NCBI RefSeq assembly: GCF_057098645.1 | Contig: NZ_CM169472.1 | Strand: one strand, 5' to 3' | DNA length: 64,000 nt | Shown here: positions 1-62,549 of the stretch, piece by piece | Position numbering within the stretch: the first letter of the stretch is position 1 | Layout of the letters: every line of letters starts with the position of its first letter | Made by a program: the position numbers and the translations under genes | The notes under the pieces: generated by a model | Told to the model about the DNA's origin: nothing | Seen by the model: the letters and a program-made list of their open reading frames with translations, nothing else | Database searches by the model: none

Positions 1-250
1 CTTGTTGCAAAAATACGGCCCCACCGCTGGCATTATTGGTCATATCCGAAAAAACCAGCCATTGCCCATCGGCGATACTCCAGACCTGCGTAATGCCTGA
101 AAGGCTTTGCCTGCTGGCGTGACAACTCGCTTTGATATCATATCCCTGGCATAAATCAATGGCCGCCGCGACACCGTTAGCAGAGAAAAGAGATGCAATC
201 ATTGACGGGAGTAGAGATAAATACTCCTTGCGTAGAAAGATAATCCGCAT
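1..250 (-). CDS. yfaL: Autotransporter adhesin YfaL, N-terminal fragment (gene continues beyond window start)
   Basis: Minus-strand translation from ATG (complement of 248-250) reads MRIIFLRKEYLSLLPSMIASLFSANGVAA..., recognised as the YfaL signal-peptide N-terminus; no stop within window. Confidence 0.6.
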   Translation of the reverse strand, partial: MRIIFLRKEYLSLLPSMIASLFSANGVAAAIDLCQGYDIKASCHASRQSLSGITQVWSIADGQWLVFSDMTNNASGGAVFLQQ

Positions 251-783
251 ATTAATCTGACCATTATTTTATATAAGACGGCATATTTAAACGCATTATA
301 CAATATGGGTTATCTTTCTTTTGTAAATTGTCCAACCCGATGCAATAGCTATTTTGTTATTATTTAATGAATAGTATCAGTGCGTCATAATTCAAGTTAA
401 TAACCTTAAGGGATACCAGTTATATTTAAACTAAATTAAAGTAATGAATAATTTTCTTATAATATAAGGTATATTAACAAAATGGCTTCGCATTTAACAA
501 TAACCGAATAGAAAACAACCATTTCGACATCAACAATCGCTTACATTCGCTTATATATTGACCACAACTGATACATCAGATTATGTGATGACTCGTGCTT
601 AGATCAATTTTTGCAATCATTAGCAAAAAGATTAATAAACCATCTATATCAATTTATCCAACCTATTCTGCCGTTCAAGAAATCGCCGAACAGTTATTTT
701 TAACAAATTTTTCTCTTCCCATTGACTTTCCCGGACACCTTGTCTGACCTAAGGTGCGCGAAAGCCACTTTTTCCTTCCTGAG

Positions 784-55826: not shown

Positions 55827-57629
55827 TTAGCGGTCCACATCTGACATAACAAAATCGATACTGCCCAGATAAACAATCAGGTCAGACACCAGGCTGCCGC
55901 GGATCGCCGCCGGAATTTGCTGCAAATGCGCATAACTCGGCGTGCGGATACGAGTGCGATAACTCATGGTGCTACCGTCGCTGGTCAGGTAGTAACTGTT
56001 GATCCCCTTGGTCGCCTCAATCATCTGGAAAGATTCATTGGCAGGCATCACCGGCCCCCACGACACTTGCAGGAAGTGGGTGATCAGGGTTTCGATATGT
56101 TGCAGCGTGCGCTCTTTCGGCGGTGGCGTGGTCAGCGGGTGATCCGCTTTGAACGGGCCTTCCGGCATGTTGTTGAGGCACTGCTCAAGAATGCGCAGAC
56201 TCTGGCGCAGCTCTTCCACTTTCAGCATTACGCGGGTGTAGCAGTCAGAAACACCACCACCAACCGGGATTTCAAAGTCGAAGTTTTCATAGCCAGAATA
56301 AGGACGCGCCTTACGCACGTCGAAGTCGATCCCGGTAGCACGCAGGCCCGCGCCAGTGGTGCCCCACTCCAGCGCCTCTTTCGCGCCATAGGCGGCAACG
56401 CCCTGGGAACGACCTTTCAGAATGGTATTTTGCAGCGCCGCTTTCTCGTAAGACGCCAGACGTTTCGGCATCCAGTCTAGGAACTCACGCAGCAGACGAT
56501 CCCAGCCGCGCGGCAGGTCGTGCGCTACGCCGCCAATACGGAACCACGCCGGGTGCATACGGAAACCCGTGATCGCTTCCACCAGATCGTAAATTTTCTG
56601 ACGATCGGTAAAGGCGAAGAACACGGGCGTCATTGCGCCGACGTCCTGAATAAAGGTCGAGATATACAGCAGGTGGCTGTTGATGCGGAACAGTTCGGAG
56701 AGCATTACGCGAATGACGTTAACGCGATCCGGCACGGTGATCCCGGCCAGTTTCTCTACCGCCAGCACGTAAGGCATTTCGTTAACGCAGCCGCCGAGGT
56801 ATTCGATACGGTCGGTATACGGAATGTAGCTGTGCCAGGACTGGCGTTCGCCCATTTTCTCCGCACCACGGTGGTGGTAGCCGATGTCTGGTACGCAGTC
56901 GACAATCTCTTCGCCATCGAGCTGCAAAACGATACGGAAAGCACCGTGCGCCGACGGGTGGTTCGGACCGAGGTTGAGGAACATGAAGTCCTCGTTTTCG
57001 GTGCCGCGCTTCATCCCCCACTCTTCCGGTTTGAAGGTCAGGGCTTCCATCTCCAGATCCTGTTTGGCTTTGGTCAGCTCAAACGGCGAGAATTCGGTAG
57101 CGCGCGCCGGGTAATCTTTACGCAGCGGGTGACCTTTCCAGGTTTGCGGCATCATGATTCGGCGCAGGTTCGGGTGACCGTCGAATGTAATGCCAAACAG
57201 ATCCCAGGTTTCACGCTCATACCAGTTAGCGTTCGGGAACAGTTTGGTGAAGGTCGGTACGTGCAGGTCGTTTTCTGCCAGCGCCACCTTCAGCATGATG
57301 TCGCGGTTACGATCGATAGAAATCAGATGGTAGAAAACGGAAAAATCCGCGGCAGGTAACCCTTCGCGGTGTGTGCGCAGACGTTCGTCCATGCCGTGTA
57401 AGTCAAACAGCATGACGTAAGGTTTCGGCAGTTTCTTTAAGAAATCGCCCACTTCCAGTAATTGTTCACGCTTGATCCACACAACGGGAACCCCGGTGCG
57501 AGTCGCCTGAACAGTAAAGGCATCCGGCCCAAAACGGTTGCGCAGTTCGCCAATCACCGGATCATCAAGATGATCGCGGGTCTGCCAGGCGGGTTCTTGC
57601 GCGGTTAAGTCGGTCATATTGTTCACCAT
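55827..57629 (-). CDS. nuoC: NADH:quinone oxidoreductase fused subunit C/D
   Basis: 600-aa [63 protein letters not shown]... with NuoC-like N-terminal and NuoD-like C-terminal halves; true start may be the Met at codon 5. Confidence 0.94.
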
Positions 57630-57722: not shown

Positions 57723-58385
57723 TTAAATCTCGTCAGGTGTACGCAGGTTGGTTACGGCAATGCGTTCACCGCGCTTGCGTTCGCGCTCTGATTGCATATT
57801 GGCGCGATAAACGCCCTGATCGCCAACCACCCAGGAGAGCGGACGACGTTCTTTGCCGATAGATTCCTGCAACAGCATCAGTGCCTGCATGTACGCTTCA
57901 GGACGCGGCGGGCAGCCCGGGATATACACATCAACCGGGATGAATTTATCGACGCCCTGCACAACGGAATAAATATCGTACATACCACCAGAGTTGGCAC
58001 AGGCACCCATTGAGATAACCCATTTTGGTTCCAGCATCTGGTCATACAGACGCTGAATAACCGGTGCCATTTTGGTAAAGCAGGTTCCTGCAACCACCAT
58101 CAGGTCAGCCTGACGCGGCGAAGCACGCAATACTTCTGCGCCAAAACGCGCCACGTCATGCACCGCGGTAAACGAAGTCACCATCTCAACGTAACAGCAG
58201 GAAAGACCGAAGTTATACGGCCAAATTGAGTTTTTACGACCCCAGTTAACCATGTCATTGAGCTTGCCCATAAACACGTTTTTGTTAACTTCTTGCTCCA
58301 GAGGGTCGGTTACGATCTCCTGCTTTTGCAGGGGGTAACGGTCGTTCTCACCGTTGGGATCTATGCGGGTGAGCGTATAATCCAT
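57723..58385 (-). CDS. nuoB: NADH:quinone oxidoreductase subunit B (N2 cluster)
   Basis: 220-aa [71 protein letters not shown]... Confidence 0.95.
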
Positions 58386-58400
58386 CTTAATGCCTCGCGG

Positions 58401-58844
58401 TTAGCGTTGACGATTAGCGATACTGTTCGTTTCCGGGTTCATACGCTCGCGGCGTGAACGCGCGGGCGTCCAGTCCAGCGCGCCAATACGCACCAGATAA
58501 ACCAGACCTGCCAGTAACACAAAAATAAAAATTGCAGCTTCCACAAAGCCTACCCAGCCGCTTTCGCGGATAGAGGTTGACCATGCGAACAGATACAGCG
58601 CTTCAACGTCGAAGATAACGAAGAACATGGCCACCAGATAAAACTTGGCGGACAGGCGTAAGCGGGCGGAGCCGACCGAGTCGATACCGGATTCAAACGG
58701 CACGTTTTTCGACCTCGCGCGTGCGCGACCGCCTAAAAACCAACCGCCTACCAGCATCAGGCAACACAGGCCAATGGCAACGATAAGAAAGATAGCGAAT
58801 GCCCAGTGATGAGCGATGACTTCAGTGGATGTTGACATACTCAT
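58401..58844 (-). CDS. nuoA: NADH:quinone oxidoreductase subunit A
   Basis: 147-aa three-[91 protein letters not shown]...; first gene of the nuo operon. Confidence 0.95.
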
Positions 58845-59473
58845 TGCTTACTCATCAAAAGTAGCGCCAGATTCACTGCTCTTCACGGCAGATGGACGCC
58901 ACATCGATTCATGGGGAGGAATAAAAAAAACCTTACAATCACTGTAGAAATTCTTTTATACAGCTAATTGATGTGGTCTTTTACTCCTTTCTATAACCTT
59001 TTGTCAACTTTAACAAAAGTTTCTTCACATTAGTTTACATAATATCAACACCATTAGCATTTAATGCCCTTTCACCCCAGATCCTTGACGACTCCAGGAT
59101 AATTAGATGTTGTTGAATCGTGTCCGTTGTGAAGCAATGGAAAAAATACGGGTCTATTTTGACAGGAATTTGTGTCGATTCCTCCCCCCAAAAGAGAGTA
59201 TTTTCTTGATCTGTGACACGCTTTTGTCATTCCATAACAAAAACGCAGCAACAAATTTACGTATTTTTTAACATCATTGTAGCAGGTGATTTTTTTCAGG
59301 CGATTATTTGTGCGTACGGGGCGTGAATCTCTGGTGATTAAAAAATGAACAGTTTTGTACGTTCTGCACGATGTGAAGAAGGTTCTTTACTAAAAAAAAG
59401 CCGCTGGGGTCTAAAACACCCCCAGCGGCTCGTTTTTACACTATTGTTCCAGGAATTATCTATGGTCCGTCGA
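58845..59473 (-). promoter_or_regulatory. nuo operon promoter/leader region (about 630 bp, AT-rich) between lrhA and nuoA
   Basis: Long non-coding AT-rich interval immediately upstream of nuoA with no supported ORF; individual regulator sites not resolved by eye. Confidence 0.4.
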
Positions 59474-60415
<942 letters not shown>

Positions 60416-61331
60416 TTATCACTTACTGGCGGCTCATACTGAGCTGGTTAATGCTGTGCACACACAAACAAGCAATTCCATTTGTAATGTGCCTCCCTGG
60501 CAGTTTCATCCGGAACCCGGACGAAAGTAAAAATGCATATGAGTTGCACTAAAAAAGCGACTCACATTGTTCCGTTATAATGCCTGAAGTAGATCACAGA
60601 ATATATCTTCAGGGATCGCATATCTATTAAGTTACTCACTCTTTTCTATTTATGACATGCGCGTGTTTGTATAAATGTAAATGTGAGTCCTTGTTCCACT
60701 CTCGTGCAGCATCGCTGGTCATACGCGAACACGTACAAACAGCAATGGTGAGGCGGCATCAAGAGCAGGGATCCGTCATTTATGCGAGCATTTTACCCCA
60801 AAAACCTTTTATTTATAAGGGTCATTGCGAATTATCTGATGCAAAGTTATGTTATGTTAGGCAAAGTAATCTTCTATTATTAATAAGCACATCAAAACCT
60901 TTTTGAATATTAAATAATAATTAATTAGCATCATCCTCATTCATTAATTCCGCTTAACAATAGTTTCACACCTTGCCCCCATTGCGACACCTCGGAAATC
61001 ATCACGCTGTTAAACTCTCCGTAATGCGGAAATATCATCATCGCGTTTCATTAGTGAATTCTTAAATGAGGCATTTTCACACAATTATCTTACAGATAAA
61101 AAAACCAGACCCACAATTAAGAATCAGAACAATTCACTATATAACACTGCATGTAAAGCATATACACCTCATTATTTTGTCATTATTAAGTTATTAACAG
61201 CACAATCGAGCCTTCCCCTCTGGCAAAATCTTATTCTGCAGACCTTCAAAACACCGTCCTGGGGGAGTACATTGTTCTAAGCTGACTTCCACGGCAGGGA
61301 GTGGCGATAACAGCAAAAAAGGTCAAGATTC

Positions 61332-62549
61332 ATGTCCCCCATTGAAAAATCCAGCAAATTAGAGAATGTCTGTTATGACATCCGTGGTCCGGTGCTGAAA
61401 GAAGCAAAACGCCTGGAAGAAGAAGGTAACAAGGTACTGAAACTGAACATCGGCAACCCAGCCCCGTTCGGTTTTGACGCGCCAGATGAAATCCTCGTTG
61501 ACGTGATACGCAACCTGCCTACAGCTCAAGGGTATTGCGATTCCAAAGGTCTTTACTCCGCGCGTAAAGCCATCATGCAGCACTACCAGGCTCGTGGCAT
61601 GCGTGATGTTACCGTGGAAGATATTTACATCGGCAATGGTGTATCGGAGCTTATCGTTCAGGCAATGCAGGCATTGCTGAACAGCGGGGACGAAATGTTG
61701 GTTCCTGCACCAGATTACCCACTATGGACCGCGGCGGTTTCGCTTTCCAGCGGTAAAGCGGTGCATTATCTTTGCGATGAATCCTCTGACTGGTTCCCGG
61801 ACCTCGATGATATTCGCGCTAAAATTACGCCTCGTACGCGTGGGATCGTTATTATCAACCCAAATAACCCAACCGGCGCGGTATATTCCAAAGAGCTTTT
61901 AATGGAGATTGTGGAGATTGCACGTCAGCATAATCTCATTATCTTCGCCGATGAAATTTATGACAAAATTCTCTACGACGACGCTGAGCATCACTCAATT
62001 GCGCCGCTGGCACCTGACCTGCTGACCATTACCTTTAATGGACTGTCGAAAACGTACCGCGTTGCAGGCTTCCGTCAGGGGTGGATGGTGTTGAACGGGC
62101 CGAAAAAACACGCCAAAGGCTACATCGAAGGTCTGGAAATGCTGGCTTCAATGCGCCTGTGTGCTAACGTTCCTGCGCAACACGCCATTCAGACCGCGCT
62201 GGGTGGTTATCAGAGCATCAGTGAATTTATTACCCCTGGCGGTCGTCTTTATGAGCAGCGTAACCGCGCGTGGGAATTGATCAACGATATTCCGGGCGTT
62301 TCCTGCGTGAAACCTCGTGGTGCGCTGTACATGTTCCCGAAAATCGACGCCAAACGCTTTAACATTCACGACGATCAGAAAATGGTGCTGGATTTCCTGT
62401 TGCAGGAAAAAGTTCTGTTGGTGCAAGGGACGGCATTCAACTGGCCGTGGCCGGATCACTTCCGCATTGTCACGCTACCGCGTGTCGATGATATCGAGCT
62501 GTCTTTGAGCAAGTTCGCGCGTTTCCTTTCTGGTTATCATCAGCTGTAA
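61332..62549 (+). CDS. alaA: Glutamate-pyruvate aminotransferase AlaA
   Basis: 405-aa PLP fold-type I aminotransferase MSPIEKSSKLENVCYDIRGPVLKEAKRLEEEGNKVLKLNIGNPAPFGFDAPDEILVDVIRNL... (SKTY motif present). Confidence 0.94.
   Translation: MSPIEKSSKLENVCYDIRGPVLKEAKRLEEEGNKVLKLNIGNPAPFGFDAPDEILVDVIRNLPTAQGYCDSKGLYSARKAIMQHYQARGMRDVTVEDIYIGNGVSELIVQAMQALLNSGDEMLVPAPDYPLWTAAVSLSSGKAVHYLCDESSDWFPDLDDIRAKITPRTRGIVIINPNNPTGAVYSKELLMEIVEIARQHNLIIFADEIYDKILYDDAEHHSIAPLAPDLLTITFNGLSKTYRVAGFRQGWMVLNGPKKHAKGYIEGLEMLASMRLCANVPAQHAIQTALGGYQSISEFITPGGRLYEQRNRAWELINDIPGVSCVKPRGALYMFPKIDAKRFNIHDDQKMVLDFLLQEKVLLVQGTAFNWPWPDHFRIVTLPRVDDIELSLSKFARFLSGYHQL

Follow-up and report, generated by a model that had tools for sequence, protein, structure and literature searches.

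The 64,000-nucleotide stretch of Escherichia coli chromosome analysed here (the window) carries, on its minus strand, the LysR-type regulator gene lrhA, a spacer of 629 bp (58845..59473), nuoA, nuoB and a fused nuoCD, in that order. The LrhA protein encoded here is 99.7–100% identical to the annotated LrhA of K-12 and O145:H28, and the K-12 annotation gives the gene order as nuoB-nuoA-lrhA-alaA. Because nuoC is present as a fused 600-aa NuoCD, the nuo operon has 13 cistrons, which corrects the 14-gene operon of an earlier note on this DNA. The control of nuo by multiple global regulators that the same note had described is borne out by ArcA ChIP-seq, RpoD SELEX, published statements on CpxR, and RyhB.

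The spacer has a GC content of 0.39 (0.345–0.42 in 200-bp windows), as against 0.51–0.58 in the flanking genes. Two A8 runs on the plus strand (58923-58930 and 59392-59399) correspond to U8 tracts in the transcribed minus strand, the former in the nuoA leader and the latter in the lrhA terminator. The previously described gap of about 630 bp, AT-rich, with poly-A runs and devoid of a supported open reading frame (ORF), stands, with exact coordinates, 39% GC and no conserved ORFs. Within a 50-kb K-12 stretch this spacer is the second longest of 47 gaps, exceeded by the 919 bp between lrhA and alaA, and the rest measure at most 337 bp. It is 99.8% identical to its counterpart in E. coli O145:H28 strain RM12761, and it is present as a single chromosomal copy in 5419 of 5426 complete E. 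coli genomes. Positions are given as window coordinates (Table 1), except that ‘pos’ denotes nucleotides past the lrhA stop codon on the minus strand, such that the window coordinate equals 59474 − pos.

Table 1 Features of the lrhA–nuoA spacer and its flanking genes, with window coordinates
Feature	Coordinates	Strand	Basis or measure
lrhA CDS (LysR-type regulator), upstream neighbour	59474..60412	-	312-aa ORF
Predicted lrhA intrinsic terminator	59392..59438	-	Folding, inverted repeat I1
Fast-evolving filler, no detectable constraint	59279..59391	-	Mean conservation 0.45
Distal ArcA site, three direct repeats, TGTTAAAAAATACGTAAATTTGTTGCTGCGTTTTTGTTATGGA	59231..59273	-	Equals K-12 ArcA ChIP-seq site ‘nuoA2’
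Near-invariant upstream block, core AATGACAAAAGCGTGTCACAGATCAAGAAAATAC	59191..59236	-	Mean conservation 0.91
Upstream copy of 10-nt perfect inverted repeat (I7), GGGGAGGAAT	59178..59187	-	Repeat search
Conserved block B, ACGGACACGATTCAAC	59109..59133	-	Conservation 0.85; directly upstream of 59107
Proximal ArcA site, three direct repeats, GTGTTGATATTATGTAAACTAATGTGAAGAA	59022..59052	-	Equals ArcA ChIP-seq site ‘nuoA1’
Core sigma-70 promoter	58978..59022	-	RpoD SELEX listing; conservation 0.97 across genera
Main transcription start sites (putative)	58972 and 58969	-	From K-12 TSS-seq
Leader hairpin 1, mRNA 5′ end	58936..58970	-	−7.8 kcal/mol, z = −2.3
Conserved U8 tract (58923-58930), then AUUCCUCCCC (58913-58922), second inverted-repeat copy	58913..58930	-	Conservation 0.85
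Leader hairpin 2 and U-rich tail	58854..58902	-	RNAalifold consensus, 74 distinct leaders (~30 genera)
Proposed RyhB pairing core, AAGCAAUG, ribosome-binding site and start codon	58842..58849	-	Identical to K-12
nuoA CDS	58401..58844	-	147-aa ORF, 100% identical to K-12 NuoA
Two filler segments			Mean column conservation 0.44–0.45
Upstream blocks	pos 196–330		Mean column conservation 0.83
45-bp core of upstream blocks			Mean column conservation 0.91
Promoter region			Mean column conservation 0.89
Core promoter			Mean column conservation 0.97
Leader			Mean column conservation 0.80

Conservation of the spacer was assessed across 80 Enterobacteriaceae loci fetched via NuoA. In all 80, lrhA lies upstream of nuoA in the same orientation, and the spacer has a median length of 629 bp, with most examples falling between 619 and 634 bp. 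When nuoA third codon positions (mean 0.735) serve as the reference for column conservation, about half of the spacer proves to be conserved above nuoA synonymous sites. Among the 80 loci, 65% of the columns in the near-invariant upstream block (59191..59236) are at least 97.5% conserved, and consensus scans revealed no transcription-factor motif that fits this block. The perfect inverted repeat I7 occurs in two copies in the 64-kb window, where 0.10 would be expected. The other conserved blocks are presumably bound by proteins. Pairing at the RNA level between GGGGAGGAAU (upstream) and AUUCCUCCCC (leader) was rejected, given that no mapped transcript includes the upstream copy and that no compensatory changes are seen. 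An antisense small RNA with its 3′ end at the block-A hairpin was also discarded, as Term-seq lists no plus-strand 3′ end there.

A hairpin beginning 44 nt past the lrhA stop codon has the form of an intrinsic transcription terminator, wherein a GC-rich stem-loop directly precedes a U-tract. Specifically, an A-tract (59430-59438) is followed by the arms GCCGCTGGGG (59420-59429) and CCCCAGCGGC (59400-59409), and then by the U8 tract (59392-59399). The arms are also given as GCCGCUGGGG and CCCCAGCGGC, and the stem as folded comprises 12 pairs closed by a 10-nt loop. The predicted folding energy is −25.5 kcal/mol for the hairpin alone and −31.7 kcal/mol (z = −4.06) for an 89-nt segment. If the structure is defined as a hairpin that folds at −10 kcal/mol or lower and precedes a T-rich tail, it is found after lrhA in 73 of 81 Enterobacteriaceae spacers (the 80 loci and the window), compared with 22 of 405 shuffled sequences (5%). 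These hairpins have a median energy of −19 kcal/mol, and their tails start at a median of 79 nt past the lrhA stop codon. The stem sequences vary among genera while pairing is kept. A consensus terminator scan of the spacer did not list the lrhA terminator because the 10-nt loop is longer than 8 nt.

Term-seq in K-12 places an lrhA 3′ end 31 nt past the stop codon, and thus an lrhA transcript end is documented upstream of nuo. At the U8 tract of the terminator itself, the K-12 tables give no 3′ end in at least two of the three conditions. A 3′ end that is recessed and fully paired may be a poor ligation substrate and consequently give no Term-seq signal at this position. The predicted terminator would presumably act efficiently in vivo.

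The nuo promoter consists of a −35 hexamer TTGACA (59002-59007) that matches consensus at 6 of 6 positions and a −10 hexamer TAAAAG (58978-58983) that matches at 4 of 6, separated by 18 bp, which is within the 16–18-bp spacing of sigma-70 promoters. An RpoD-holoenzyme SELEX peak in the K-12 spacer is listed with TTGACA-18-TAAAAA. The −35 hexamer resides within a 13-bp inverted repeat (I4, 58995-59022), and the core promoter is invariant across about 30 genera. Our stricter consensus promoter scan of the spacer did not list the nuo promoter because the last base of the −10 hexamer is not T.

TSS-seq of K-12 assigns 4218 reads to a nuo start with a 5′ untranslated region (UTR) of 128 nt and 1744 reads to one with a 5′ UTR of 125 nt (5962 in total), where the printed upstream sequences terminate in ...TAAAAAACCACA and ...CATCA, respectively. 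Transferred by sequence identity, these primary 5′ ends would fall 6 and 9 nt past the −10 hexamer. The dominant K-12 starts therefore indicate a leader of roughly 125–128 nt, or about one-fifth of the spacer, and the ‘long leader’ that had been proposed for the whole region is not borne out. Other start positions have been used in the literature. A published PBAD-nuoA fusion takes as +1 a position 263 nt before the ATG (59107), with an oligonucleotide that begins TCTAATTATCC. In addition, the numbering of ArcA sites points to two start sites in databases, separated by about 174 nt; the lower one lies about 88 nt before nuoA. This last position (about 58932) falls on the 3′ foot of hairpin 1 and may represent a reverse-transcriptase stop or a processing site. 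An 88-nt leader, deduced from the ‘G86C/C87G’ numbering in a paper on RyhB, was dropped because the fusion oligonucleotide starts 263 nt upstream and TSS-seq gives 128 and 125 nt.

Two ArcA sites lie upstream of the promoter, at −301 to −259 (distal) and −80 to −50 (proximal) relative to the start site. Both K-12 ChIP-seq site sequences, which are TGTTAA-type direct repeats, are unchanged here, and the repeat cores of the distal site are kept across genera. In K-12, ArcA represses nuo 2.7-fold. Two E. coli alleles exist for 59018-59065, a segment that takes in the proximal site. Within the proximal ArcA site, the sequence GTAAACTAATGTGAA (59024-59038; conservation 0.92) resembles a CpxR box with one mismatch to consensus. 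Direct binding of CpxR to the nuo region is stated in the literature, and we treat this candidate box, picked out by its resemblance to the consensus, as a lead. Apart from it, consensus scans of the spacer for CpxR, FNR, CRP, ArcA, IHF, NarL, Fis and Fur sites yielded only weak matches. Papers of 1995–2004 reportedly describe control of nuo by ArcA, NarL, FNR, IHF and Fis.

At the mRNA level, the proposed RyhB core corresponds to an 8-nt complementarity (58842..58849) with what we take to be the RyhB sequence. Pairing of RyhB over the ribosome-binding site and start codon has been validated by compensatory mutations in K-12, and the ribosome-binding and start region is identical in the present strain.

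The leader harbours two hairpins. Hairpin 1 shows changes on both sides in 8 of 11 pairs, with 73.5% of cells paired in what is a gappy alignment. Hairpin 2 (58861-58902) is formed by an outer stem, in which GUGGCGUC (58895-58902) pairs with GGCGCUAC (58861-58868), and an invariant inner stem, in which CUGC (58888-58891) pairs with GCAG (58876-58879), and is followed by the tail UUUUGAU (58854-58860). Between 98 and 100% of its cells are paired, compared with 23–44% in slid controls, and three outer-stem pairs exhibit compensatory double changes (15, 14 and 20 sequences). The E. coli hairpin has a predicted energy of −19.9 kcal/mol (z = −2.4). The distance from the end of the stem to the AUG is 15–16 nt in all 74 leaders, and the tail contains on average 4.9 U per 8 nt (61% U versus a background of 32%).

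Hairpin 2 also coincides with mapped RNA ends. A Term-seq dataset (Adams et al. 2021) contains nuoA leader 3′ ends at −14 and −10, equivalent to 58858 and 58854 in the window, with 125k–476k reads under three growth conditions, or 5–10 times the values in neighbouring table rows. These ends carry an intrinsic-terminator score of 11.56, where the threshold is 3, and a Rho score of 0.82. Thus, a hairpin and U-tract with a mapped 3′ end reside within the 5′ UTR, as would be seen with an attenuator. The main text of the Term-seq paper never mentions nuo, and our literature search uncovered no paper that combines nuoA, its 5′ UTR and intrinsic termination. Leader hairpin 2 with its coinciding 3′ ends is an under-described feature.

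The earlier note had raised the possibility that transcription from lrhA extends into nuo or causes interference at the nuo promoter, such that the two units are coupled. The shared orientation and the adjacency kept in 80 of 80 loci would suit this proposal, as would the Term-seq tables, which hold no 3′ end at the predicted terminator U8. However, the 12-bp GC-rich stem with its U8 tract is kept across genera, an lrhA 3′ end is detected 31 nt past the stop codon, and K-12 TSS-seq records 11 reads for the lrhA start against 5962 for nuo, a difference of about 500-fold. Read-through is unlikely because the terminator hairpin is conserved and lrhA is transcribed at this much lower level. Term-seq supplementary file 2 also lists no Rho-termination region for lrhA or nuoA. 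In work by Bongaerts from 1995, inactivation of lrhA is said to have caused no significant change in nuo expression, which also counts against read-through. What lies here is essentially a strong lrhA terminator together with a single nuo promoter near nuoA, the arrangement that the note itself had set against its proposal; database-derived starts at about −263 and −88 also exist. On this evidence we regard coupling of the two units as highly improbable. We give still less credence to the idea that the conserved blocks conceal an unannotated gene, either for a small protein or for a small RNA on either strand. Blocks of 40–50 bp are conserved to the extent of nuoA first and second codon positions, and six mechanical ORFs (37–60 codons) exist in the spacer, but the frame, start codon and stop-free state of these ORFs are intact in only 0–2 of 79 other genomes. 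The six ORFs and the upstream ORF of the leader were rejected as genes on the basis that they are not conserved. Moreover, the K-12 RefSeq annotation has nothing inside the spacer, and an Rfam search of 58300-61400 gave no match at E ≤ 1 in the spacer, with a chance miRNA match inside lrhA as its sole result. Within the spacer, the Term-seq lists contain, on either strand, no 3′ ends beyond those of lrhA and the leader, the K-12 TSS-seq data list only nuo starts there, and the blocks overlap or adjoin ArcA ChIP-seq sites and the promoter.

Two further proposals concern the nuo transcript itself, and both merit more weight. A second nuo promoter farther upstream, starting near 59107 and producing a 263-nt leader under some conditions, is possible but doubtful. 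The published nuoA fusion takes its +1 there, the ArcA numbering corresponds to two database starts about 174 nt apart, and conserved block B lies immediately upstream, where the semi-conserved −10-like sequences TCTAAT, TAAAAT and TTAAAT occur. Nevertheless, the K-12 TSS-seq data list no reads at this position, no good −35 was found, and the 35 bp downstream are unconstrained (0.44). The other proposal, which we consider less likely than not and about as probable as the second promoter, is that hairpin 2 serves as a transcription attenuator or as the 3′ end of a stable, functional small RNA of about 115–119 nt derived from the leader, wherein a regulated fraction of nuo transcription would stop 10–14 nt before the start codon. 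The strong Term-seq ends (−14 and −10, three conditions), the terminator score of 11.56 beside a Rho score of 0.82, the covarying stem and the U-rich tail in all 74 leaders agree with such a role, and, in the manner of classical attenuators, the leader has a short upstream ORF that overlaps the hairpin's 5′ arm. Yet this ORF is without a Shine-Dalgarno sequence, varies in frame and length, and, in 6 of 80 loci, lacks a start codon. The U-tract, at four Us, is short, the stem has internal loops, inspection of the leader found no convincing alternative (antiterminator) fold, and the leader as a whole folds no more stably than shuffled sequences (z = −0.46). Trimming of decaying nuo mRNA by 3′ exonucleases up to a stable hairpin would give the same ends, and the fixed distance of 15–16 nt to the AUG would suit a function in translation or in mRNA stability just as well. 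If either form of this proposal is correct, hairpin 2 sets the share of complex I mRNA that is completed, which would be a new layer of control for a textbook operon, atop ArcA, Fis, NarL and RyhB.

We hold with high confidence that this spacer is the known lrhA–nuoA control region, in which nuo has its own promoter and is insulated from lrhA, with global regulators acting on the DNA and RyhB on the mRNA. In this model, a 44-nt lrhA 3′ UTR and the predicted strong intrinsic terminator would close the lrhA unit, followed by about 110 bp of apparently unconstrained filler. Some 300 bp of regulatory DNA would come next, with the two ArcA sites and the conserved blocks, on which Fis, IHF, NarL, FNR and CpxR are reported to act. 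The sigma-70 promoter TTGACA-18-TAAAAG, with its −35 hexamer in a palindrome, would then initiate transcription at 58972 and 58969. The resulting leader of 125–128 nt would carry a 5′ hairpin, the U8 tract, a C-rich box, the covarying hairpin 15–16 nt before the AUG and the RyhB site. This six-part layout is what suggests to us that nuo is transcribed from its own promoter in a tuned and insulated manner. The application of K-12 data to the present strain should be sound, given that only one of the 15 differences between the two spacers falls within the 430 bp closest to nuo.

No respiratory enzyme of E. coli is larger or costs more iron than complex I, and expression of complex I is tightly managed for this reason; the spacer is where this management takes place. 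The nuo control region is already known, has been studied since 1995, and is ordinary apart from the conserved leader hairpin. The present analysis removes the speculative read-through link to lrhA and provides a base-resolution map backed by conservation. This map also reveals selected parts that go beyond the known account, namely the 45-bp invariant block, the inverted repeat of 10 nt, and the leader hairpin together with the 3′ ends mapped to it.

The locus is the same as the nuoA-N region of K-12 (Bongaerts et al. 1995, Wackwitz et al. 1999, Zhang et al. 2004, Park et al. 2013). The K-12 spacer is 630 bp long, compared with 629 bp here, and the two differ at 15 positions. Of these, 14 lie in the lrhA-proximal 160 bp, including 9 in the filler at 59279..59391; the filler, the loop of the terminator and the lrhA 3′ UTR carry a few substitutions. 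Within the 430 bp nearest nuo, the two spacers differ solely at the final base of the −10 hexamer, which is G here and A in K-12, whereas the ArcA sites, the −35 hexamer and the leader are identical. The nuo region of Salmonella (Archer and Elliott 1995) and those of about 30 Enterobacteriaceae genera have the same gene order and a spacer of about 625–630 bp, and they share the lrhA terminator, the invariant core promoter, the upstream blocks and leader hairpin 2. Sequence differences in the other Enterobacteriaceae affect the filler, terminator stem, hairpin 1 and U-rich tail. A motif in the lrhA 3′ UTR, GTAACAAAATGTAAG, is found in most genera but is degraded in E. coli.

A more distant counterpart is the nuoA-N operon of Pseudomonas putida, which has two promoters and four Fis sites (PMC6072106). 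In both systems a long regulatory region with several Fis sites precedes nuoA and more than one start has been reported, although their sequences are unrelated and lrhA is not reported upstream in P. putida (PMC6072106). The closest parallel for the leader is ispU, for which a terminator score of 14.1 is given (Adams et al. 2021). The ispU element is backed by reporter fusions, whereas the nuoA element is known from a supplementary table alone, and the nuoA U-tract is shorter than that of ispU and ends inside the ribosome-binding region. In both cases, however, a Rho-independent 3′ end with a high terminator score is situated within the 5′ UTR.

The lrhA-nuoA spacer holds a conserved upstream block (see table) that, across roughly 30 genera, is conserved to the same degree as the first and second codon positions of nuoA. 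Scanning this block for transcription-factor consensus motifs gave no match. After the block comes a YCCCY-loop-RGGGG inverted repeat, with variation confined to the loop.

A 10-nt sequence, GGGGAGGAAT, occurs twice in the entire 64-kb window, and both copies reside within the lrhA-nuoA spacer, where they are placed in inverted orientation with 255 bp between them. Only 0.10 copies are expected in a window of this size, and two copies were reached in none of 100 shuffles. Each copy lies inside a conserved block, one in the nuoA leader and the other upstream of the promoter.

Features of the lrhA-nuoA spacer and the nuo operon, in window coordinates
Feature	Position	Strand	Remark
Conserved upstream block	59191-59236		~45 bp; conserved across ~30 genera
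GGGGAGGAAT, copy 1	58913-58922	+	spacer
GGGGAGGAAT, copy 2	59178-59187	-	spacer
Leader upstream ORF	58883-58912	-	MNRCGVHLP* in the window
nuoC	55827-57629	-	fused 600-aa NuoCD

The upstream ORF in the nuoA leader overlaps the covarying hairpin 2 of this leader at its 5′ arm. Its start codon (ATG or GTG) is present in 74 of 80 loci, and the ORF reaches up to 23 codons in other genomes. It lacks a Shine-Dalgarno sequence, and its frame and length vary among the 80 loci. Downstream, the operon comprises 13 cistrons rather than the 14 genes stated in the earlier note, because nuoC encodes a fused NuoCD protein. Published TSS-seq data for K-12 also include a minor start (40 reads) located 18 nt inside nuoA (window 58826 region), which was assigned to nuoB.

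Within E. coli, the ArcA/Fis segment next to the promoter (59018-59065; 409-456 nt after the lrhA stop codon; loci L084 and L085) exists as two strongly divergent alleles that differ at 12 of 48 positions. Despite this divergence, the repeat cores TGTTG, TGTAAA and TGTGAA are retained in both. E. albertii shares several states with the divergent allele, which probably corresponds to the 1043 genomes of the 90-95% identity class. Insertions are present in three other spacers: one measures 937 bp with 50% GC (L015), and two exceed the usual length by about 120 bp (L061 and L075). Locus L058 is titled Chryseobacterium sp., yet its lrhA-nuoA locus is of the Enterobacteriaceae type, and the record is therefore probably mislabelled or contaminated.

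On the other side of lrhA, the divergent lrhA-alaA spacer (60413-61331; 919 bp in K-12) is longer than the lrhA-nuoA spacer. The lrhA 5′ UTR spans 371 nt and contains a Term-seq 3′ end 50 nt upstream of the ATG (intrinsic-terminator score 3.75); lrhA expression varies by strain, according to the literature.

The published Term-seq 3′ end of lrhA itself maps to 59443, 31 nt past the stop codon. This position is upstream of the predicted terminator hairpin and falls in a second predicted stem, wherein the final lrhA codons pair with the 3′ UTR. Comparison of the first 45 nt downstream of lrhA in loci L005-L082 revealed a near-invariant sequence, GTAACAAAATGTAAGTGTAAAAA, directly before the terminator in most non-Escherichia genera; the E. 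coli sequence has diverged at this position. GTAACAAAATGTAAGTGTAAAAA resembles the CpxR box (GTAAC-N5-GTAAG).
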